Notes under the pieces: model-generated
Seen by the model: the letters and a program-made list of their open reading frames with translations, nothing else
What the model was told of the DNA's origin: nothing
Database searches by the model: none
Program-made: the position numbers and the translations under genes
Assembly: GCA_900128565.1 (NCBI GenBank)
Contig: LT635934.1
Span: 1-42,912, forward strand
Length of the DNA stretch: 42,912 nucleotides
Direction: 5' to 3'
From: Stramenopiles sp. TOSAG23-6
Taxonomy: Eukaryota
In this document: in pieces, positions 15,042-39,295 of the stretch
Position numbering within the stretch: the first letter of the stretch is position 1
Layout: every line of letters starts with the position of its first letter

Positions 15042-15094
15042 CCGCCAAAAAATTGATGATGCCTCGATTTTTTCGGGCAGACATGTTATTGCGC
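15042..15094. promoter_or_regulatory. E2F-like site (CCGCCAAA) plus TGTTATTGCGC motif in the divergent RNASEH2C/TOP1 promoter
   Basis: CCGCCAAA at 15042-15049 and TGTTATTGCGC at 15084-15094; the same pair occurs upstream of the CDK gene. Confidence 0.5.
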
Positions 15095-15221: not shown

Positions 15222-17634
15222 ATGCTTGACGAGTCCGATGATGATATTCCCCTCAGTATGATGTCGAAGAAAGTCAAGAAAAAGGAAAAACATGCCGACT
15301 CGTCTGATTCTGAAGATGATAAGCCCTTGAGTAAGTTGAGTGTTATTAAGCAAATTGGAAAAAAAGTGAAGAAAGAAAAACTTGTCACGAAGGATCAAAA
15401 TAGTAAGGTCTTTACTAGTCCAAGTGTTATTAAGCAAATTGGAAAGAAAGTGAAGAAGGAGAAAAAGGTGAAAAAAGAGAAAAAGCACAAGAAGGAAAAG
15501 AAGCACAAGAAGGAGAAAAAGCACAAGAAAGATAAAAAGCACAAGAAAGAAAAGAAATCATCCAAAAAACGATTATTATCCTCAATTTCGAAGAATTCTC
15601 CAAAAATAACAAAAAAACGACGAAAGAGTAGCACATCTAAAGGCAAGAGTGGTCCCCAGCGAAGCATGAAAGTGATAAATGAGACAGAAATGCTTGACGG
15701 CGCCATGAAAGCTCACAAGTGGTGGGAAGATCCACCTACTAAAGAGGTGATGGGAGATAATGGTGAAATGTTTTTGCCTCAGTGGTCTTCAATGGAACAT
15801 ATTGGTGTTATATTTCCTGAGGCGCACGATTACTCGTATGATGACAATGGTAATCGTGTCTGTATGAAATATGATGGTCAGGATGTTGATCTTACTCTTG
15901 AGCAAGATGAAGTTGCGTATTTTTACGCTAAATCTTTAACTGCGATGCAACTTCAAAAAGAAGAAACAGCAAAGATATTTAACAAAAACTTTTTTGCTGG
16001 TTTCAAGAAAGTTTTGGGTAGAGGCCACATAATAAAAGATTTCAAAAAGTGTGACTTCACTCCTATCAAAGCTAGGTTGGACGTGTTGCGTGACCGGAAG
16101 AAAGAATCCAGTAAAGCTGTAAAGAATGCCGAAAAGGAGAAACGCGCTGTGGTGCAACGTACGTATGGTTATGCTTTAGTCAACGGTCGTGTCCAACGAG
16201 TCGGAAATACTACTATTGAGCCTCCAGGACTTTTCAGAGGTCGTGGTATTCATCCTAAAATGGGAACTATTAAGAATCGTGTACCACCAGAAGCTATCGC
16301 TATTAATGTATCTCGATGTGCTGCTGTGCCGAAATGTCCCGTCCCAGGACATGCTTGGGGTGCTATCGTACACAAACCTGATGTCACATGGCTGGCTATG
16401 TGGAAAGAGAACATCAATGGCAGTGTTAAATATGTTTACTTAAATAGTGGTTCTGCATTCAAGGGAAAATCAGATAGATCTAAATACGAGAAAGCGCGAA
16501 AGTTGAAAAATTATATCTCGAAAATTCGCAAGGATTATCGAAAAAAACTTACTGCCAAAAATTTAGAAACTGCACAACTTGCGACAGCTATGTATGTTGT
16601 TGTTTTTTTCAATTTCGAATTTATTTTTTTCATACGAAATTTCGTACCTAACAAAAACAAAAGAAAATATTTTTTTACAATACATGTGGGTCATTGATGT
16701 ATTAGCACTTCGTGTTGGTGGAGAAAAGGGCGAAGACGAAGCTGATACTGTTGGATGTTGCTCTTTACGAAAGGAACATTTTACGTTTGAACCAACGGAG
16801 GATACACCATATCCTTCTGATATGTGTTTTACGCTTGATTTTCTTGGTAAAGATTCTATGCGTTATTTTGAAGTAATTGACTTAGGTACCGAACGACACC
16901 AGGTTGACGGTATTGGAGCCAAAGTGTTTGCTAATATTAAGAGATTTTGGAAAAAGGCCAAGAAACCTGGTGATGATATATTTGATAGACTCAATCCGTC
17001 ACTATTGAACGACCATTTAAGAAGTCTCATGCCTGGATTAAGCGCCAAGGTATTTCGTACTTTTAATGCTTCAATCACATTAGAAGAAAAGTTACCGCTT
17101 CGTATACCTTCTGATCTAGCTGGCGCTGAACAGTTGCTTATATATAATGCCGCTAATCGTGATGTGGCTATTTTATGTAATCATCAACGGTCGGTTCCTG
17201 CTAGTTTCGATAGTAGTTTCAAGAAGTTGAAAGATCGTGAAAAGTTGAAAAGCAAACAACTCTCCGAATTAAAGGAACATCTCAAGCGACGTAAAAAAGG
17301 TAAGGACATTAAACTACAGCCTAAGGAAATGCCAACTGATAAAGCAGAAAGAGCAAAAATCTCACATCTATACAAGTCTCAGCCAGATCCATCAAAGTTG
17401 CGCAATCGTATTGCAACATTCGAAAAACAGGTAAAGAATATGCGCGATAACATAAAAAACAAAGATGACAACAAGACAGTTTCTCTCTCTACATCAAAGA
17501 TTAATTATATGGATCCTCGCGTGACTGTTGCATGGTGCAAGCGTAATGAAGTTCCTATAGAGCGTGTATTTCCAAAAGCTTTGCAAGATAAATTTCCTTG
17601 GGCTATGAGTGTCCCTGAGTCATGGAGATTTTAA
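15222..17634 (+). CDS. TOP1: DNA topoisomerase IB; exons 15222-16591 and 16686-17634 (772 aa if spliced)
   Basis: Lys-rich N-terminus; EPPGLFRGRG.HPKMG; KYEKAR; catalytic ALRVG, FLGKD, KVFRT, CNHQ and INYMDP motifs all intact. Removing 94 nt restores QLATAM-WVIDVLALR. Confidence 0.93.
15339..15556 (+). repeat. Lys-rich coding repeats in the TOP1 N-terminus (SVIKQIGKKVKKEK x2; KKEKKH-type 18-bp units)
   Basis: Visible in both DNA and translation. Confidence 0.85.
16592..16685 (+). other. Non-canonical 94-nt intron (GT...AT, equivalently AT...AC at 16590-16683)
   Basis: GTATGT donor, CTAAC branch-like motif 16648-16652, T-tract and end TACAT. ATGT is duplicated at both junctions. Removal is required to restore the TOP1 frame and a conserved motif. 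Confidence 0.75.
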
Positions 17635-23579: not shown

Positions 23580-24482
23580 TTACTGGGTAGCTTGTTCGCT
23601 AGTATTTGTGCCAGCTTTCATATCTGAAGTAGAGTTATCTCCAGTATTTCCTGTACTTTCTAATTTATTTTCTTGGGATTCTCCAGTATTTCGTGTACTC
23701 ATCTCTATTTCTTTTTTTTCTTCAGATTCTCGAGATCTCCCTTTCTTTTTTCTAGTTTTAATATTTAGCCTCTCACGGAGACTTTTACTGTTTGAGGTTT
23801 TACTTTCACCCGTAATTTTATCATCTTTAGTCTCTTTAGTCTCATGATAGTGATCTTCATCTTTTTCCTTTGTCAAAAGTTGATCAGTCTCCAACGTTGT
23901 TCCCGCAGCTGTATTTTTCCTCACTGAAGAAAACATTTCCAGAAACTCAGCACAAGGACTATGATACTCTTTTCGTCGACTTCTAATTTCTCGGCTTGTC
24001 CAATTGAAAAATATTGCAAATCCAGATGATGTCAACTCACCTAAAAAAGGCGGAAGGCAGAATAATAAAAATATTGCCAAGAGCCTCGAACTTTCCCAAC
24101 CATCAAGGACAAAACCAAGCATAGCAAAAGAACCGGCAAGGTGACACGTTATACTACACATTGTATTCCTAGAAGACATAACTGAAGCTCCGTACAGAAA
24201 CCCAACAATTTCAAGGGAAATGCAAAGAAATGAAAAAGTTTCAACTAATCTATAGTCTGACATATACTTATCGAGAAGGTCATCAAGTGCAGTCTTGGAG
24301 CAGTTGGTATCGACACAGGAACTACTTTGCTTGTATCGGAGCCACAAGTCTTTTGTAGTTAGCATAGCTCTTACATTGGGTGATGGGCCCAGAGAACTCG
24401 CCCATAGCAATAATAAATGTGTACATATGGAGATAAAACGAGTGCCCATAAGTCTCATACCAAGGTGCTGGCTTTTCGTCAT
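23580..24482 (-). CDS. TMEM107: Ciliary transition-zone protein TMEM107 with a charged C-terminal extension
   Basis: RFISICTHL, NVRAML, EIVGFLYGASV, SITCH, W-E and FCLPPFLGE align by eye with TMEM107 motifs; 4 TM helices. Confidence 0.7.
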   Translation of the reverse strand: MTKSQHLGMRLMGTRFISICTHLLLLWASSLGPSPNVRAMLTTKDLWLRYKQSSSCVDTNCSKTALDDLLDKYMSDYRLVETFSFLCISLEIVGFLYGASVMSSRNTMCSITCHLAGSFAMLGFVLDGWESSRLLAIFLLFCLPPFLGELTSSGFAIFFNWTSREIRSRRKEYHSPCAEFLEMFSSVRKNTAAGTTLETDQLLTKEKDEDHYHETKETKDDKITGESKTSNSKSLRERLNIKTRKKKGRSRESEEKKEIEMSTRNTGESQENKLESTGNTGDNSTSDMKAGTNTSEQATQ

Positions 24483-26305: not shown

Positions 26306-27202
26306 TCATGATCCTTTGCTTTTCAAGTCATTGAACCATGGGTGCTGTAATGCTGCTTTAGCAGAAATACGTTTCGTTGGATCAAACATCATCATTTTAG
26401 TCAACAAATCTATGCCGTTCGCATCTAGCTGGGGACACTTTGCGGTTAGATCCTGAGTTGGCCATTTAGGAAATGATGCTTTGAAATCTGGAAGAGCAGA
26501 GACGCCCGGCCAAATCTTTTCTGTTGGTGTTCCAAGGAGACGGAATATGCGAAAGAGCATGTCAATTTCAGAATCACCTGGCCAAAGAGGTCGCTTATTT
26601 GCCAACTCCGCCATAATACAACCAATTGACCATATGTCAACACCAGTGGAATAATGACGAGATCCAAGAAGAATTTCTGGTGCACGATACCAGAGTGTAA
26701 TAACCTCATGTGTGTATGCCCTGACTGGAATACAGAACGCTCGAGCAAGACCAAAATCAGCAAGTTTCAAACGACCGTTCATATCAATTAGTAAATTTTG
26801 TGGCTTCAAATCACGGTGCATTACACCACGTTTATGACAAAAATCAATACCTAAGAGCATTTGACAAACATACGATTTAACAAGCATTGGTTTTAAATAC
26901 TTGGTTTTGACATTATCCATATGTTTCTTTAAATCTTGGTCAAGGTATTCGAAGACAAGGTATAAACGATTATCACTGTGCTCAACATCTTTGAGTTTTA
27001 CGACATTTGGGTGCTCAAGAGTTTTTAACACAGAAATTTCACGAAGAGCAGTAGATGGCACACCTTCATCCTCTACTTCCAGGCGGATCTTTTTCAATGC
27101 TACAGTCTCTCCAGTTTCGATATTCTTGGCTTTATATACTACTCCATATGTTCCTTCACCGAGAGGTTTTTCAATCTTCTCATACTTGGCAAGACAACTC
27201 AT
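26306..27202 (-). CDS. CDK1: Cyclin-dependent kinase, CDK1-type with PSTALRE motif (stramenopile CDKA2-like)
   Basis: Motifs [34 protein letters not shown] and [14 protein letters not shown]. Confidence 0.95.
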
Positions 27203-27589: not shown

Positions 27590-27642
27590 CGCGCCAAAAA
27601 AGGATTCAAAAAAAAAACTTAAAATGACACGTGTTATTGCGC
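27590..27642. promoter_or_regulatory. E2F site (CGCGCCAAA) plus TGTTATTGCGC motif upstream of the CDK gene
   Basis: GCGCCAAA at 27591-27598 is TTTGGCGC on the minus strand; TGTTATTGCGC at 27632-27642; CHR-like TTCAAA nearby. Confidence 0.55.
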
Positions 27643-32932: not shown

Positions 32933-35900
32933 ATGAATATGTTTGAGGTGAGAAGTGAGTCTTCGGATTCATTCCAGTCTTCGGAATCATTCCAAGAAGT
33001 TGACGAATTAGCTAGTAATATAAAGTTGGGAGCTAGTGTTATTCCTGATATTCAGCATTCTTCATCAATCCATATGGAGAGTAAAAGAAATACATTCAAT
33101 CAAATATATAGATCAAATCTTCTTGAGAAAAAACTAAGTTGGAAAAGTGGACAGGTAAAGTCCCTTAAAGCAAAAATAAAAGCACTAGAAGTGAAATCTA
33201 ACTATGGAAAAAGACAGCATGCTTTGGGAATGAAAAACATGGAAGATAAAGTTAAAGATCTGGTCAAAACTAATCACAAAACCATTAAGGAAATAACTGA
33301 TTTGCATCAGCTTGAACTTGATAAATTAAAATATATTCATGAGAAAAAGATCATTGAGCTTGGTAACGAATTGCTTCAGAAGCACGCTGAAGAAAAAAAG
33401 CTTATTAGGAAATCTACGAATGAAATGTTAGAATTGAAGGATCAAACTATAAAAAAACAAGATCGGGAATTATATGAAGAACGATCACAAAATTGGAAAT
33501 TAGAAATCAATAATAAGGAGTTATCGAATTCTCATAGTTTAACTTTAAAAAGAAAGATAGAAAATCATCACGACGAAATTGTTTCACTTTCAAAGAAACA
33601 ACAACTATCACTAGAACAGCTTAAAACACTTCACGAATTAGAAAATTCAGGTAAGATACAGAACTTGAAGGCGAAACAGAGCGAGGTAATTCGGTTGTTA
33701 AAAATGAGAATACGTGCTGAGGAAGAAGCACACGAGGACACTAGAAAAAAGAGTAGCACTGCAATGGCTGAAGCTCATGGAATTCACAATAGTGCAATTC
33801 AAACACTATCAAAAAAACACCAGCAGGAAACTGAATCATTGAAAAAACAAAATGAACTTCAGTTGGCAATTTCAATGAAAAACCAAGCTAAAACACATCG
33901 ATCAGAAATTGACCGATTGAAGTCTCTTTCAGAAAATGATATTGGTCACTTTGAGGAACTTCTGAAACGCTCAGATGCCCAGGCTAAATTTCATAAGAGT
34001 AAAGTAAAAGAATGTGAAGAGAAACACGATGCTGTTTTAAAAAAACATGTAAATACATTAAATGAAAAAGAAAAGATGTCAGCAGATCTTCTCCGCAAAA
34101 CGATAAATCTGCATACAGAAGAGATTTCGAAAATCAAAGCTGAATACGAAAACAAACAAAATGCTGCTGTGCGAGAAATAGTAGAAAGTAATTCGTTAGA
34201 AATGCAACAAATGAAAGATGTAGCGCGCAAAACGAAAATAGAAATGGATGAAATAAAAATCAAGCACAAAGCTGAAGTTGATTCTCTTAATTGTAGCGTG
34301 GATGAAGTTAAAATACTTTATAACAAAGCCCTTCAAAAGCATGATGTAACAATGAACAAACAGAAACAACAACATGGGAATGATTTATTGGAGGTGGAAA
34401 GGAAATACGAAGAGAAGCTGTCCGTTTCAGCAAAGAAATTGCACTCTGATCATATCAAGAAAACGAGTAATCTTTCTGAGATACACTATAAAAAAATTGA
34501 AGAACTTGAAACTAAATTGAGAGACTGTGAAATAAATTGCGCTGCTGTACAGCAAGCTAAAGCAATAGAATTGAGTCAGAAAGATATCGCTCACAAAAAA
34601 GCTATGGCAGAATTATCTACTGCCCATATTGGGGCGATGGCAACTGCAGCCATCAAGTCAAATGGTGAATTGGAACATACAGTTGCCGAGATTTCCGATA
34701 AACACTTGTCGGAAACTAAGCGTATTACATCGCTGGCGGAACAGGACAAACAGAATTATTTAGACTTACTTGAAAAATGCAGATCAGAAACTTTGAAATA
34801 CAAGGCCGACGTTGAAGTGAATAAGCTCAATGATGCTAAAACATTAGAAAGACATGCAAAAATACTCTTAGATAAAGAAAAGGATCATGAAGCAACATTA
34901 CATGAAGTAAAACAAGTACATGAAAAACATCTTTCAAAACAAGCAAACGAACATGATTTAAAATGTTTAGAACTAGCAGAAAAATTCAAGAAACAGCAAG
35001 ATGACACATTATGTGAACTCCAAATTGAACGTAAAAGACATGGAAATACTTTATCAGAGTGGGAATCGAAATATAATCATGCTATACAAAAACATAAAAT
35101 ATCTGAACAGCGCATGGAAAATGCACACCACTTAGCCTTGGAAGAAATCCGTAAAGAGTTAAATGAAAAAAATACTTTCTTAGCAGCTAAATATTCTAGA
35201 GAAAATGCTGTTTTAGTGAATGATCTCAAAAGCATTCACGAAAAGCAGATTAGATCACTCCAGTCAGAACAATATACTGCGATAAACAAACTTAAAGATA
35301 ATCATGCGAAGGACGTAAAGGGATTAGAATTAGAATTACGAAATTGGGAAATTAGGTGCAACAAAAACAACAACACACACGCAGCAATGATCCGTGGTAC
35401 AGAAACAGCCCAACGAGATGCAATTCACACATTACGTCAAAAGCACGAAGTGGAACTATCTGATGTGGTAAGAAAGTATCATGGAGAACGCAAAGTTACA
35501 ATAACTGATTTGAAAAGCAAACATAGAGCAGAGGTCGAAGCTTTGAATACTAAAAATATAAAATTACAAAATGAATCTATTGAATGGGAAGAAAAGTATG
35601 CTAATTTGATGAATTCTACATCAATAAATAGTCGAGAGCAAGATAAAAAGCTTCACAAACAAATCTCCGAGTTGGAGGAATACCGACGCACAATTGCAGA
35701 GATGTCAGTGAAGCATCAAAAGAAAATTACGGATTTGACTTTAATTTCCAAAGATTGGGAAGAGAAACATACTAAGATGATGGCAAAATATCATATTTCG
35801 ATGAAGGATAAAGAAGATGAACACGCTACTGCTTTAGACTTACATTTGAATACTTTGAAGGAGACCAAGGAAGAGCATCAAAAGATTAAGACTGAAATGA

Positions 35901-36541
35901 TTGCGAAACATCATCATGAACTAGAAAAACAAAGGGGTGAGTTTGCGATTGGTCTCAAAAAGGAACTCAATCGTATGGCTAAAACACATTCAAAGGTAAT
36001 GAAACAACATGAAGCAGCTTCAAAAAAAGATCAAAAAAGGGTTGATGCTATCATACGTGAACACAATAATGAACTGAAGCAGTACAATAAATCAATTGGA
36101 TCATTTTGGGAACATCAAGAAAGGTTCCAAAAAGATGCAATTAATGCAATATTAACAAAATACGAAGCTGAACTTGAAATATCAATGAAAAAGTATAGAG
36201 GAGATGTTAACCTAGCAATTCGTGAAGTTGTAGGGAGACACACAAAAGAGATATCAAGAAATATATCTAAAGCAGTTATACATTGGCTTGCAATCGAATC
36301 TCTGAAAGAATCGCACAAGAAAGAATTTGACTCATTTCTGAAGAATAGATCTGAGTCATATAAACCCTCAGATGTGAATTCTAAAGAAACTAATTACGCT
36401 GATGCTGTAGATAAACTTCAGAAAAAGTATCAACCTGAAGTACTAAATTTCAAAAAAAGTAATCTCGCCTCAGCACTTCAATGTGAAGTAATAGCAAATA
36501 CAACAGAATGGGTCAAAGAACGGAAGTTTGATACAGGTTGA
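32933..36541 (+). CDS. Large His/Lys/Glu-rich coiled-coil protein, unknown function
   Basis: 1202-aa uninterrupted ORF, almost Pro-free, with recurring KHxxE-like helical motifs. Confidence 0.85.
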   Translation: MNMFEVRSESSDSFQSSESFQEVDELASNIKLGASVIPDIQHSSSIHMESKRNTFNQIYRSNLLEKKLSWKSGQVKSLKAKIKALEVKSNYGKRQHALGMKNMEDKVKDLVKTNHKTIKEITDLHQLELDKLKYIHEKKIIELGNELLQKHAEEKKLIRKSTNEMLELKDQTIKKQDRELYEERSQNWKLEINNKELSNSHSLTLKRKIENHHDEIVSLSKKQQLSLEQLKTLHELENSGKIQNLKAKQSEVIRLLKMRIRAEEEAHEDTRKKSSTAMAEAHGIHNSAIQTLSKKHQQETESLKKQNELQLAISMKNQAKTHRSEIDRLKSLSENDIGHFEELLKRSDAQAKFHKSKVKECEEKHDAVLKKHVNTLNEKEKMSADLLRKTINLHTEEISKIKAEYENKQNAAVREIVESNSLEMQQMKDVARKTKIEMDEIKIKHKAEVDSLNCSVDEVKILYNKALQKHDVTMNKQKQQHGNDLLEVERKYEEKLSVSAKKLHSDHIKKTSNLSEIHYKKIEELETKLRDCEINCAAVQQAKAIELSQKDIAHKKAMAELSTAHIGAMATAAIKSNGELEHTVAEISDKHLSETKRITSLAEQDKQNYLDLLEKCRSETLKYKADVEVNKLNDAKTLERHAKILLDKEKDHEATLHEVKQVHEKHLSKQANEHDLKCLELAEKFKKQQDDTLCELQIERKRHGNTLSEWESKYNHAIQKHKISEQRMENAHHLALEEIRKELNEKNTFLAAKYSRENAVLVNDLKSIHEKQIRSLQSEQYTAINKLKDNHAKDVKGLELELRNWEIRCNKNNNTHAAMIRGTETAQRDAIHTLRQKHEVELSDVVRKYHGERKVTITDLKSKHRAEVEALNTKNIKLQNESIEWEEKYANLMNSTSINSREQDKKLHKQISELEEYRRTIAEMSVKHQKKITDLTLISKDWEEKHTKMMAKYHISMKDKEDEHATALDLHLNTLKETKEEHQKIKTEMIAKHHHELEKQRGEFAIGLKKELNRMAKTHSKVMKQHEAASKKDQKRVDAIIREHNNELKQYNKSIGSFWEHQERFQKDAINAILTKYEAELEISMKKYRGDVNLAIREVVGRHTKEISRNISKAVIHWLAIESLKESHKKEFDSFLKNRSESYKPSDVNSKETNYADAVDKLQKKYQPEVLNFKKSNLASALQCEVIANTTEWVKERKFDTG

Positions 36542-36675
36542 AACACAGCATATTAAAATTCTCAAAAATAAACATGATAATTCTTTTAGGTATTTTTATT
36601 TTTCTACCAACATACATTCGTCAGTTAAGGTTAATATGTTTTGGACATTTCATATTTTTGAAAATGCACAATATT

Positions 36676-38055
36676 TTAATTACGTAACACAGCAGATGCT
36701 ACTAAAGTTACCAAACCACACCAATACAGTGACATTAATGCCAACTGTGAAAAGGCTGGTTTCAAGGTAGTTTGAATCGTTGAATACGGAGAATTTTTGT
36801 CAGCCAGAATAAAAAGATGAGCAGTTGATAATGCTGCAGCACCAGTTAAGCCAAGCCACTGTGGAAGCGATTCTTGTTTTAAAGAAATTGGATGTCCGTA
36901 ACCAATTCTTGCAGCCGCGCGCCAACACATACCCCCAATAACACCAAAGAAAGTACAAAGTATAGCATCCAAACGAAAATCACCTAATCTGGTGGACATG
37001 AACAATAACATTAGCGGTACAATGGTGATTAACATTAGAGTGGCTTCAAATGGAACGAGTTCACCTTTGTGTGTCGCTGAGTTAAATGCAAGAGCAAAAG
37101 CAAAATTTCCAACTGTGTAGGACATAAGCATTACAATAAAATTCGAAGTTTCATCACTTCTAAGTGGATTGATGTTAATATGCTGTAATATTTCTGCTGC
37201 AATATACCACACCATTCCAATGGCAATCCATCTTGCGTATTTTTCTTTTTCTCCCTTGACTTTAAGCACTGCAAAAAGAGAAATTAGGGATGGAACTACC
37301 ATTGTGGAAAGACGAATCCAACGCAACACTGACTGTGCTCCTTTCAATGTACCATCTTCGTACATTTTTGCAACATTTGTTTCATGCACACCATTGGTAG
37401 TGTCTTCCCAACCTGTTTCACTTGGGCTGTCCAAAATATTTGCAGGCCACCACCAAGGGCCCTGAGCGCCGTGAGTTTTTAGTGTTCTTTCAAGACCTCC
37501 GTGTACAAGAAAAGCACAGAGAACGTTTGATACAATACAAAAACCTAAAAATGTAAATAATAGAATTGCTCTTACATTAATACCTTCTGATATATCGTGG
37601 AATGAGGGCACTCTTCCTCTTGATTCTTTGGGTGTCTTCACTGATTTCTTAGTTTTGGTTTTGGGTGTTCGTTTCTTGAGTTTTGGAGACTCAGACTGTG
37701 GAGATGATTGTTTTGAAGATGAAGATTTACGAAGGGGTGTCTTCGATCGACTTCGCTTGGTTGGTGTTTTCTTGGGTGTCCCCTTTTTAGATTTTATTGG
37801 TGTTTTCTTGGGTGTCCCCTTTTTAGATTTTATTGGTGTTTTCTTGCCTGCTCCTTTTTTAGCCTTCAATTTTTTTTCGAACTCTTGGATATCCTTCTTC
37901 ATACCATCGGATATCATGTGTTTCCGAGTTTCCCATGTGTTGTCCGAAGTGGAATAACCTTCCCATTTGATCAAATATTGAATAACCCCTTTATGCTTTC
38001 TTTTATCCAGGATTTTTTCAATAGTAAAGTATTCATCTGCATCTGCATTTCCCAT
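36676..38055 (-). CDS. Chromodomain + basic TPxK linker + YhhN/TMEM86-like multi-pass membrane protein
   Basis: EYFTIEKILDKR....QYLIKWEGY...NTWE chromodomain; C-terminal helices with MCWRA, GAAAL and LYWCG..LVASA similar to the YhhN family. Confidence 0.85.
   Translation of the reverse strand: MGNADADEYFTIEKILDKRKHKGVIQYLIKWEGYSTSDNTWETRKHMISDGMKKDIQEFEKKLKAKKGAGKKTPIKSKKGTPKKTPIKSKKGTPKKTPTKRSRSKTPLRKSSSSKQSSPQSESPKLKKRTPKTKTKKSVKTPKESRGRVPSFHDISEGINVRAILLFTFLGFCIVSNVLCAFLVHGGLERTLKTHGAQGPWWWPANILDSPSETGWEDTTNGVHETNVAKMYEDGTLKGAQSVLRWIRLSTMVVPSLISLFAVLKVKGEKEKYARWIAIGMVWYIAAEILQHININPLRSDETSNFIVMLMSYTVGNFAFALAFNSATHKGELVPFEATLMLITIVPLMLLFMSTRLGDFRLDAILCTFFGVIGGMCWRAAARIGYGHPISLKQESLPQWLGLTGAAALSTAHLFILADKNSPYSTIQTTLKPAFSQLALMSLYWCGLVTLVASAVLRN
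37761..37846. repeat. Coding tandem repeat, 36-bp unit x ~2.4 (KKTPIKSKKGTP)
   Basis: Exact repeats start at 37761 and 37797, with a partial copy at 37833. Confidence 0.95.
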
Positions 38056-38161
38056 TTTGCTATCTTCGAGATGAGAGAGTTGCTCGATCTCAGATCATTC
38101 ATTCAAATACGCCTCAGGTTCGCGTGTACACGTTTTTTTTTGAAGTCGAAGTCAGTGTTTA

Positions 38162-38173
38162 TTTCCCGCCAAA
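38162..38173. promoter_or_regulatory. Canonical E2F site TTTCCCGCCAAA upstream of the chromodomain gene
   Basis: Double-overlapping E2F consensus ~107 bp upstream of the ATG at 38055. Confidence 0.55.
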
Positions 38174-38287
38174 AACAAACACGAAAAACCTTCAAAAATT
38201 CAAAGACATCAGATGTCGATGACAAATTGACGATCGAAGTTCGAAGTTCGAGCCTCGAGGTATAAAATAGTAGTATGAAGCAAAAAT

Positions 38288-39295
38288 ATGAAAAGCATTT
38301 ATCAATGTAATGTAGTAGGAGTATTCTTTGTAGCTCTTTTTTTTCTTTTAAGCCATCAATATATTTTAAATCATAAAAATGTTGTGGAACTCAAACTTGC
38401 ATTCTGTCCCGGGATAGGTACAAACAATCGTGGAATAATTTATAACAAAGTCCCAAAATCTGCAAGTACTACAGTTGTTGAGTGGATGAAAATACGAAGT
38501 ACAGAAGTATCAAAACTTAATAGTGACAAGCATTCTAATATTCTGATTCGTGTCTTTGGTAACCCAAAGCATAGATGGTTTACCCCGTATCAAGAAAAAG
38601 AACTAATAGTGCACTTTACACGCCTTACTAAAGTTTATCCAAAGTTTGTATATATCCGGCACATGTTTTGGCCCAATTTTGCCCTCTATAGTCAAAACAA
38701 ACCTACAATGCTAACAGTGGTCCGCCACCCTGTTGATCGTTGTATTTCTCGATATTATTATGAAATTTCAAGTGGTAGATTGAAAAATGAAAGTCTTGAT
38801 GATTGTATATTATCTGATCGTTGTCGTTTTAAAGAGTGGAATATTCTTGAAGCGAAACGAGAATATAGTTCTTCAAATGAAGATTCGATGCTGCTTTTAT
38901 TGGATGAATGTAATAATTATTTGACCCGTTGGTTTTGCGGTCATAGTGCAGAATGTCATCCTAGTTCAAATCAAACAGCAGTGCAGTCAAACAAAAAAGC
39001 ATTACTCTTGGCCAAGAAAAGAGTCCAAGAAGAATATATTTACGTTGGTTTGGCAGAAGATTTAGTAAATAGCCTTGTTGTTATTCAAAAGATGATGCCA
39101 ACATATTTCGGTAGCAATACTCTCTGGAGAAACAAACATCTACCAAGAAAAAATATGAGTAATCGTCCACAGTCAGTGATGCGTAGAAGCGTATTAGAGC
39201 TATTGCTCAAATTAAATGAATTTGATGTGGAGTTATATGAATACATAAAGCAACTTCATTATAATAAATTGAAAAGGTGTCAAGTTCATTCATAA
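38288..39295 (+). CDS. Golgi type II membrane sulfotransferase (heparan sulfate/uronyl 2-O-sulfotransferase-like)
   Basis: N-terminal TM; 5'-PSB motif IIYNKVPKSASTT; 3'-PB motif VRHPVDRCISRYYY; WFCGH; ELYEY. Confidence 0.85.
   Translation: MKSIYQCNVVGVFFVALFFLLSHQYILNHKNVVELKLAFCPGIGTNNRGIIYNKVPKSASTTVVEWMKIRSTEVSKLNSDKHSNILIRVFGNPKHRWFTPYQEKELIVHFTRLTKVYPKFVYIRHMFWPNFALYSQNKPTMLTVVRHPVDRCISRYYYEISSGRLKNESLDDCILSDRCRFKEWNILEAKREYSSSNEDSMLLLLDECNNYLTRWFCGHSAECHPSSNQTAVQSNKKALLLAKKRVQEEYIYVGLAEDLVNSLVVIQKMMPTYFGSNTLWRNKHLPRKNMSNRPQSVMRRSVLELLLKLNEFDVELYEYIKQLHYNKLKRCQVHS

Follow-up and report, generated by a model that had tools for sequence, protein, structure and literature searches.

Two described proteins come closest to the one analyzed here; the papers on them are cited for individual passages only. 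In the cited passages on the lamin B receptor (LBR), a histone reader is followed by an RS domain, which holds a CDK1 site, and by eight membrane segments of lipid-enzyme origin; a conserved RSRSPGR lies beside the RS repeats, with the CDK1 site just upstream, and enzyme activity is retained (PMC5617974). LBR as such is described as not pan-eukaryotic, only its sterol-reductase domain being so (PMC7889174). In C. elegans, the cited account of CEC-4 presents a perinuclear chromodomain anchor sited at the inner nuclear membrane and displaced in mitosis (PMC4783997). The gene treated here lies on contig LT635934.1 of Stramenopiles sp. TOSAG23-6 (assembly GCA_900128565.1), in a stretch of 42,912 nucleotides that we call the window, and joins a chromodomain, through a basic linker, to a membrane domain that homology searches identify as a divergent relative of the YhhN/TMEM86 lysoplasmalogenases. 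To our knowledge, little is understood, beyond animals and yeasts, of the way in which heterochromatin is attached to the nuclear envelope.

The best explanation is a protein integral to the membrane, in which the first 155 residues are predicted to face the cytosol or nucleoplasm and the C-terminal part to form an eight-helix scaffold derived from YhhN/TMEM86. We give an even chance to the reading that it is a membrane-anchored chromatin reader at the inner nuclear membrane, tethering methylated chromatin and loosened by phosphorylation of its linker. The gene and the parts of its product are as follows.

36676..38055, minus strand: whole gene, a single-exon open reading frame (ORF) of 459 amino acids, stop codon 36676-36678 included
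37870..38028, minus strand: chromodomain, residues 10-62 (Pfam PF00385, E 1.1e-14), with F10, W31 and Y34 as cage candidates
37588..37869, minus strand: basic disordered linker, residues 63-156, with 34 K/R, 10 [ST]P and six [ST]Px[KR]
37761..37846, minus strand: perfect 36-bp tandem repeat in the linker, 2.4 copies with 100% matches, encoding a duplicated TPIK/TPKK block
37729..37755, minus strand: linker motif RSRSKTPLR, residues 101-109, with the core R-x-R-S-K-T-P
37501..37569, minus strand: first transmembrane helix (TM1), ~residues 163-185, a probable signal-anchor (from hydropathy, alignment and model)
37324..37500, minus strand: Trp-rich acidic loop between TM1 and TM2, 59 residues, 186-244 (GPWWWP...GWE), of low model confidence (predicted local distance difference test, pLDDT)
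36685..37323, minus strand: TM2-TM8, the YhhN-homologous core, residues 245-457 (from searches, alignment and model)

One gene for a chromodomain and a YhhN-like membrane domain

The 459-residue ORF begins with the earliest ATG available in its frame and runs without interruption through both domains. The same order of parts, chromodomain, basic linker and YhhN-like domain, was found in P0006, P0007, P0009 and an ORF in L002, which together with the window protein represent five divergent lineages; the membrane cores of these architecture relatives are only 21-31% identical to that of the window protein. P0007, P0020 and P0018 exceed the Pfam cut-offs for both Chromo and YhhN. Two relatives that seemed to depart from this order are truncated gene models: P0008, whose full ORF in L002 begins with a chromodomain (Pfam 5.3e-13), and P0003, whose ORF in L001 runs 5'-open into an RS/TP-rich linker. 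The pairs of nearest neighbors are identical whether the chromodomain or the membrane core is compared, a pattern that fits one old fusion. The two parts have diverged to different extents, P0001 and P0006 sharing 62% identity in the chromodomain and 31% in the membrane core. The relatives' loci have a GC content of 57-62% vs 39% for the window gene and hence come from different source organisms. An independent assembly contributed P0002, a 97%-identical protein of 447 residues.

The stretch concerned is present in 17 runs recorded as RNA, from eight studies, mostly polyA seawater metatranscriptomes. A single record, a 1390-nt RNA-library contig of run X1, spans 36686-38111 and bridges both domains; it differs from the window by three synonymous differences and by two adjacent ones in a single codon, which give E233R. 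This contig shows the joined form in RNA libraries, although contigs cannot prove a transcript. Toward the E2F-like site described below, the RNA contigs end at 38111 (X1 and X2) or 38143 (X8), and in the contigs of four runs none extended over 36300-36669 or 38150-38500, which gives no evidence on transcript ends.

Because a single ORF, a bridging RNA-library contig and the recurrence of the architecture in five divergent lineages coincide, the chromodomain-YhhN fusion is one real gene and not an annotation fusion. A preliminary description of this DNA had argued as much from the uninterrupted frame, and had proposed looking for the Chromo+YhhN architecture elsewhere; the bridging contig and the recurring order of domains now stand beside the frame. 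That two adjacent genes, or the halves of an assembly chimera, are read here as one ORF has a negligible probability: nothing was found in its favor, and besides the points just listed it has to contend with the near-identical protein from an independent assembly and with a spread of 39-62% GC among the five lineages.

Word-indexed protein searches returned two proteins for the whole protein, three for the family alignment and one for residues 240-459, counts that are no measure of rarity; the first two of these searches considered no more than the 8000 candidates with most words in common, a set that the low-complexity linker probably crowded. As a separate observation, the EukProt model P0011 (961 residues) has a YhhN-like N-terminus that runs into RhoGEF-PH-FYVE. 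It departs from the near-identical P0010 just ahead of the last helix and, for that reason, is probably a merged gene model rather than a true fusion.

Descent of the membrane domain and its lost catalytic residues

Hydropathy reveals eight hydrophobic segments in the membrane domain, and eight long helices appear in a domain-only AlphaFold model (pLDDT 78, predicted TM-score 0.77), the number given for YhhN proteins in the cited passages of PMC11994398. A conserved juxtamembrane motif, F-x-D/E-V/I, directly precedes TM1. The 59-residue Trp-rich loop that follows this helix is predicted to face the lumen or perinuclear space; outside the window protein it occurs only in L001/P0003 and P0005, the closest subfamily, and canonical YhhN proteins do not have it.

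The kinship with YhhN emerges from sequence searches with residues 156-459. An exhaustive phmmer search against 1.84 billion representatives returned 16 proteins at E<=1e-3, among them the bona fide YhhN proteins P0014 (E 1.9e-4) and P0016 (E 6.1e-4). P0014 matches Pfam YhhN at E 1.2e-43, and in a pairwise BLASTP comparison it aligns with the membrane domain at 2e-13, and the motifs of the family line up. Pfam itself assigned residues 156-459 to no family at E<=10, hence neither to YhhN (PF07947) nor to C14-sterol reductase (ERG4/ERG24). Several relatives do pass the YhhN cut-off of 25.6 bits: P0003, 44% identical to the window protein (40.9 bits, E 2.3e-10), P0007 (39.9 bits, E 4.7e-10), P0015 (32.7 bits) and P0004 (31.9 bits). 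An Atlas feature search named YhhN clusters with a score of 0.82, which serves as a lead only; with P0007 as query it gave no feature match, and structure rows with TM-scores of at most 0.25. Searched by sequence against the PDB, the membrane domain matched nothing at E<=10. Since phmmer, BLASTP and the Pfam-passing relatives connect it to canonical YhhN, the membrane domain is, on homology, a divergent YhhN/TMEM86 homologue.

Structural comparison led to no fold assignment. In a wide VIA-align search with the membrane-domain model, the top row was a seven-helix adhesion G-protein-coupled receptor (Z 12.0, root-mean-square deviation 4.2 Å over 184 residues, 11% identity), and the next rows were many receptors of the same class and rhodopsin bundles at Z 8-10; by the guidance of the program, a score at this level can reflect no more than a helical layout that many proteins share.

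In the cited passages on TMEM86A, the residues proposed to be catalytic are K43, G81, D82, H104, G182, S189, D190 and Y213, and alanine scanning found these positions crucial in TMEM86A/B, except G81/G87 (PMC11994398). The D82A and D190A mutants abolish activity (PMC11994398, PMC9283435), and the mutagenesis primers show D82 as part of a GD motif and D190 as part of an SD motif (PMC9283435). The canonical P0014 and P0016 keep all eight positions (K, G, D, H, G, S, D, Y). In the window protein they read M252, A287, E288, N317, G405, A412, H413 and Y444, so that two of the eight are kept, G405 and Y444: the lysine is replaced by M252, and the canonical GD, AH and SD pairs read A287-E288, G316-N317 and A412-H413. 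Across the relatives, the second Asp is lost in all 15 non-canonical rows that cover its position, and the first is retained in 10 of the 18 that cover it. On this alignment, the membrane domain no longer carries the lysoplasmalogenase active site, and the window protein is a YhhN homologue but not, as judged from these residues, a functional member of the YhhN lysoplasmalogenases. The replacements of GD, AH and SD by AE, GN and AH had been read exactly so in the preliminary description, and its count of about eight helices and its by-eye likeness to YhhN/TMEM86 hold up equally well in the hydropathy, the model and the searches that reach P0014 and P0016. A clear pseudoenzyme branch would thereby be added to the little-studied YhhN/TMEM86 family.

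It is distinctly unlikely that the protein still processes or senses lipids as a YhhN protein of the endoplasmic reticulum (ER) or nuclear envelope, with an altered chemistry built on E288, N317 and H413 in place of D, H and D, and with a chromatin-binding N-terminus that places or regulates it; the membrane domain would then be the working part, in the manner of LBR, whose sterol reductase remains active. Such a protein would account for the WRAAARxGYG loop (WRAAARIGYG in the window protein), which is kept, like G405 and Y444, from bacteria to the window family, for the polar nature of the replacing residues (E, N, H) and for the retention of the first Asp and His in subfamily B; LBR, in the cited account, provides a dual-function precedent (PMC5617974). 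It fits poorly with six of eight altered positions, with the consistent loss of the second Asp, whose alanine mutant is reported inactive in TMEM86A/B in the passages cited above, with a membrane core that evolves faster than the chromodomain (31% vs 62% identity), and with the failure of the window protein itself to match Pfam YhhN.

Chromodomain, linker and the proposed anchoring of chromatin

The chromodomain belongs clearly to Pfam PF00385, with 54.5 bits against a cut-off of 25.1 and the model covered entirely (1-53). Its top PDB sequence match is HP1alpha/CBX5 (E 1.3e-12), and HP1beta/CBX1, CDYL, Drosophila HP1, MPP8, CBX and CHD1 are the other leading ones; all the top matches are histone readers, and the nearest in this search are the H3K9me readers HP1alpha/beta, CDYL and MPP8. 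In the CBX5 alignment, F10, W31 and Y34 stand opposite Y, W and F, which we take to be the methyl-lysine cage residues of CBX5, so that three aromatic residues occupy the cage positions. Across the lineages these positions hold F/Y/H, W and Y/F, the W and the Y/F being invariant, and all three are aromatic in four of five lineages. A Foldseek search with the full-length AlphaFold model gave nothing at E<=0.001; its high-probability rows (0.9-1.0) were all chromodomains, but at E>=0.15.

The linker that follows is extremely basic, with 34 K+R vs 3 D+E in 94 residues, and residues 70-151 have a pLDDT below 50 in the full-length model. Its six [ST]Px[KR] sites are TPIK (twice), TPKK (twice), TPTK and TPLR, and RSRS occupies residues 101-104. 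An RS-rich linker of the LBR type thus lies between reader and membrane domain, with phosphorylation predicted from its motifs. The core R-x-R-S-K-T-P was found in six of the six lineages with a known linker, with two or more [ST]Px[KR] sites in each as well. In the window protein, two of its six derive from the 36-bp tandem repeat, whose copy number varies: RNA-library contigs of three of the four runs examined skip 36 nt at 37761-37796, and P0002 is 12 residues shorter, that is, by one repeat copy. The number of sites therefore depends on the allele, with six in the window protein vs four in the shorter form. Linkers combining S/TP-K and RS are typical of DNA- and chromatin-binding tails.

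The N-terminus is hydrophilic and acidic and has no hydrophobic signal; the first hydrophobic segment begins at about residue 155, and the flank before TM1 is extremely basic. Setting the 59-residue acidic loop aside, the short loops hold 10 K+R on the predicted inside vs 5 outside. An N-terminus in the cytosol or nucleoplasm is therefore most likely on these sequence rules, and with eight helices both termini would lie on that side. Residues 1-7 (38050-38055, minus strand) read MGNADAD, where relatives begin MSEE, MTSY, MESH or METY; Gly2 is presumably a candidate N-myristoylation site by consensus, not conserved among the relatives.

One element upstream of the gene may bear on the timing of expression.

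38162..38173, no strand assigned: E2F-like palindromic 12-mer TTTGGCGGGAAA, 107 nt upstream of the ATG

The 12-mer pattern has its sole match in the window here, against 0.02 expected, and occurs in 2 of 100 shuffles. The shorter E2F-like 8-mer TTTSSCGS occurs 11 times in the window vs 5.0 expected, a number reached in 3 of 100 shuffles. We regard the promoter element as a hint only. Five of the 11 8-mers are intergenic according to the ORF list; one (15042-15049) lies upstream of topoisomerase I and another (27591-27598) ~390 nt upstream of the ATG of a cyclin-dependent kinase (CDK) gene. That kinase (26306-27202, minus strand; 298 residues; Pfam Pkinase 5.9e-75) carries a PSTALRE cyclin-binding motif and counts in favor of a CDK-regulated tether. 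A bacterial promoter and terminator scan of 38000-38300 gave 0 sites, which is irrelevant to a eukaryote. On all these features the preliminary description has fared well: the N-terminal chromodomain with an intact aromatic cage, the highly basic linker with six CDK consensus sites and RSRS, and the cytosolic or nucleoplasmic N-terminus agree with the profile match, the CBX5 alignment, the site count, the hydropathy and the loop charges, and the E2F site it placed upstream survives as an E2F-like 12-mer.

We favor a chromatin tether because a chromodomain and an H1/LBR-like linker mounted on a membrane can meet chromatin only at the inner nuclear membrane, or at the ER of an open mitosis. The proposed course of events would begin with TM1, which as a signal-anchor would insert the protein into the ER. 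From there it could diffuse by way of the pore membrane, its extralumenal part being only ~17 kDa, disordered and like a nuclear localization signal in character. Retention at the inner nuclear membrane would follow once the HP1-type chromodomain engages histone tails that carry methyl-lysine (H3K9me or H3K27me), aided by binding of the H1-like, S/TPKK-rich linker to DNA, and silent chromatin would thereby be fastened to the nuclear envelope. In mitosis, CDK-type and perhaps SRPK/AGC-type kinases would phosphorylate the [ST]Px[KR] sites and R-x-R-S-K-T-P, neutralizing the linker and loosening the tether, and the E2F-like element may provide cell-cycle-timed expression. We infer residence at the inner nuclear membrane, binding of methylated histones, linker phosphorylation and mitotic release from the parts of the protein described above.

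Several observations weigh against this proposal. One of the five lineages has His at the first cage position, a cpSRP43 chain appears among the weaker PDB matches (E 8.7e-6), and chromodomains are able to bind non-histone partners. The charge bias of the short loops is modest, the topology having been read from sequence rules and not from a dedicated predictor. The E2F 12-mer pattern was defined post hoc, after the site was seen, and the 232-bp intergenic region that holds it is shared with a divergent sulfotransferase-like gene (38288-39295, plus strand). The family is small, numbering only the 16 proteins of the phmmer search among 1.84 billion representatives. The subfamily of P0007, P0010, P0015 and L002 retains the first Asp and His, so that its membrane domain may still be an enzyme. 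Finally, WRAAARxGYG is the most conserved stretch of the membrane domain and is present in bacterial YhhN as well, which suggests a role beyond that of a passive anchor.

The points on the chromodomain would be explained if it read a non-histone ligand, perhaps a methylated or ARKS-like motif of some other protein, in the way that cpSRP43 chromodomains bind the tails of membrane proteins, and if the protein acted as an adaptor or regulator at the ER, the Golgi or the plasma membrane. Besides the cpSRP43 match and the His in one lineage, it speaks for this possibility that nuclear residence is not proven by sequence. We nevertheless consider it unlikely, given that the top PDB matches are all histone readers (HP1, CDYL, MPP8, CBX, CHD1), that every lineage carries the H1/LBR-like S/TP-K and RS linker, and that the protein has no N-terminal targeting peptide.

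A different timing of the same activity has a small probability. The protein would then be a mitotic or post-mitotic recruitment factor that returns ER or nuclear-envelope membrane to the chromosomes once the linker is dephosphorylated, and no interphase tether. Everything that suggests a tether suggests this too, including the many CDK-consensus sites and the E2F-like element, and a role of LBR in envelope reassembly is described in the cited passages of PMC5617974; sequence cannot separate such a recruitment role from interphase tethering.

Returning to the tether, a bolder form of the proposal is tentative and on balance doubtful: that marine protists, independently of LBR and CEC-4, evolved a one-polypeptide tether between methylated histones and the inner nuclear membrane by joining an HP1-type chromodomain and an H1/RS-like, CDK-gated linker to a YhhN pseudoenzyme, and that the retained, lipid-facing WRAAARxGYG loop might sense the state of lysolipids or plasmalogens. 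Were this sensing real, it would couple membrane composition to heterochromatin anchoring. If the tether itself is true, a histone-mark reader and a membrane anchor in one chain would make it the simplest such tether known, and a lipid enzyme would have been recruited to nuclear-envelope anchoring a second time, independently, which would suggest a general evolutionary route.

Genomic surroundings and comparison with known systems

The window is of a cellular-eukaryote type, gene-dense and intron-poor, with ~36% GC overall and 39% in the chromodomain-YhhN gene itself. Besides this gene it encodes a kinesin, a Rab, topoisomerase I, CSN8, a Brix protein, TMEM107, an acyl-CoA dehydrogenase, a kinase, a TBC RabGAP and the sulfotransferase-like protein. 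Convergent with the chromodomain-YhhN gene, with 134 bp between the stop codons, lies a K/E/H-rich ORF of 1202 residues (32933-36541, plus strand) that has no Pfam family and a coiled-coil-like look. Topoisomerase I is divided between two overlapping ORFs (15222-16697 and 16594-17634, plus strand) that jointly cover its Pfam domains; the split within 15222-17634 probably reflects either a frameshift or a short intron. The TMEM107 homologue (23580-24482, minus strand; Pfam 5.7e-17) belongs to what we take to be a ciliary transition-zone protein family, and its presence makes it probable that the source organism has a flagellated stage.

With the HP1/CBX proteins, the window protein shares its chromodomain, for which CBX5, CBX1 and Drosophila HP1 are the best sequence matches, with the aromatic positions in register. 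It differs from them in having no chromoshadow domain and in joining the chromodomain to a membrane domain rather than placing it in a soluble dimer. The linker resembles the S/TPKK tails of histone H1 and sperm histones as a lysine-rich disordered stretch with repeated TPKK/TPIK; S/TPKK motifs are DNA minor-groove binders and CDK targets. Unlike histone H1, the protein has no globular H1 domain, and DNA binding by its linker is only predicted.

The membrane domain agrees with YhhN, TMEM86A and TMEM86B (Pfam PF07947) in its eight helices, in the WRAAARxGYG loop, in the G of QWxGxxG and in the Y of YW. It departs from them in missing the Pfam model, in the replacement of K, G, D, H, S and D, and in carrying an extra chromatin-type N-terminus of 155 residues and the 59-residue loop insertion. 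In the literature sampled, mostly outside subscription journals, no paper linked a chromodomain with YhhN or TMEM86, and the nuclear-envelope papers in that sample described no such chromodomain-YhhN protein.

The closest parallel in overall design is metazoan LBR. As far as the cited passages of PMC5617974 go, both proteins have the same order of parts, a reader, a basic RS linker and, last, eight membrane segments of lipid-enzyme descent; both termini of LBR are nucleoplasmic, as is predicted for the window protein; and the RSRSPGR and CDK1 site of LBR have their counterparts in the R-x-R-S-K-T-P and [ST]Px[KR] sites of the window family. The components themselves are different. The reader is a chromodomain and not a Tudor domain, none of which was found by Pfam at E<=1 where Chromo was found instead; the membrane domain is YhhN-like and not a C14-sterol reductase; and the window protein has lost six of the eight key residues of its enzyme family. 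Since neither a Tudor nor a sterol-reductase domain was detected, the likeness to LBR is, by domain content, convergent, and the LBR-like logic of convergent origin that had been proposed at the outset is an apt description.

CEC-4 can be compared by description only. Both are chromodomain proteins, known in the one case and proposed in the other to be nuclear-envelope anchors, but the anchor of the window protein is an explicit eight-helix domain, whereas the cited passages of PMC4783997 describe no multi-pass domain in CEC-4. On the best reading, the window protein is analogous to LBR and, with the same proviso, to CEC-4, and is a member of neither family.

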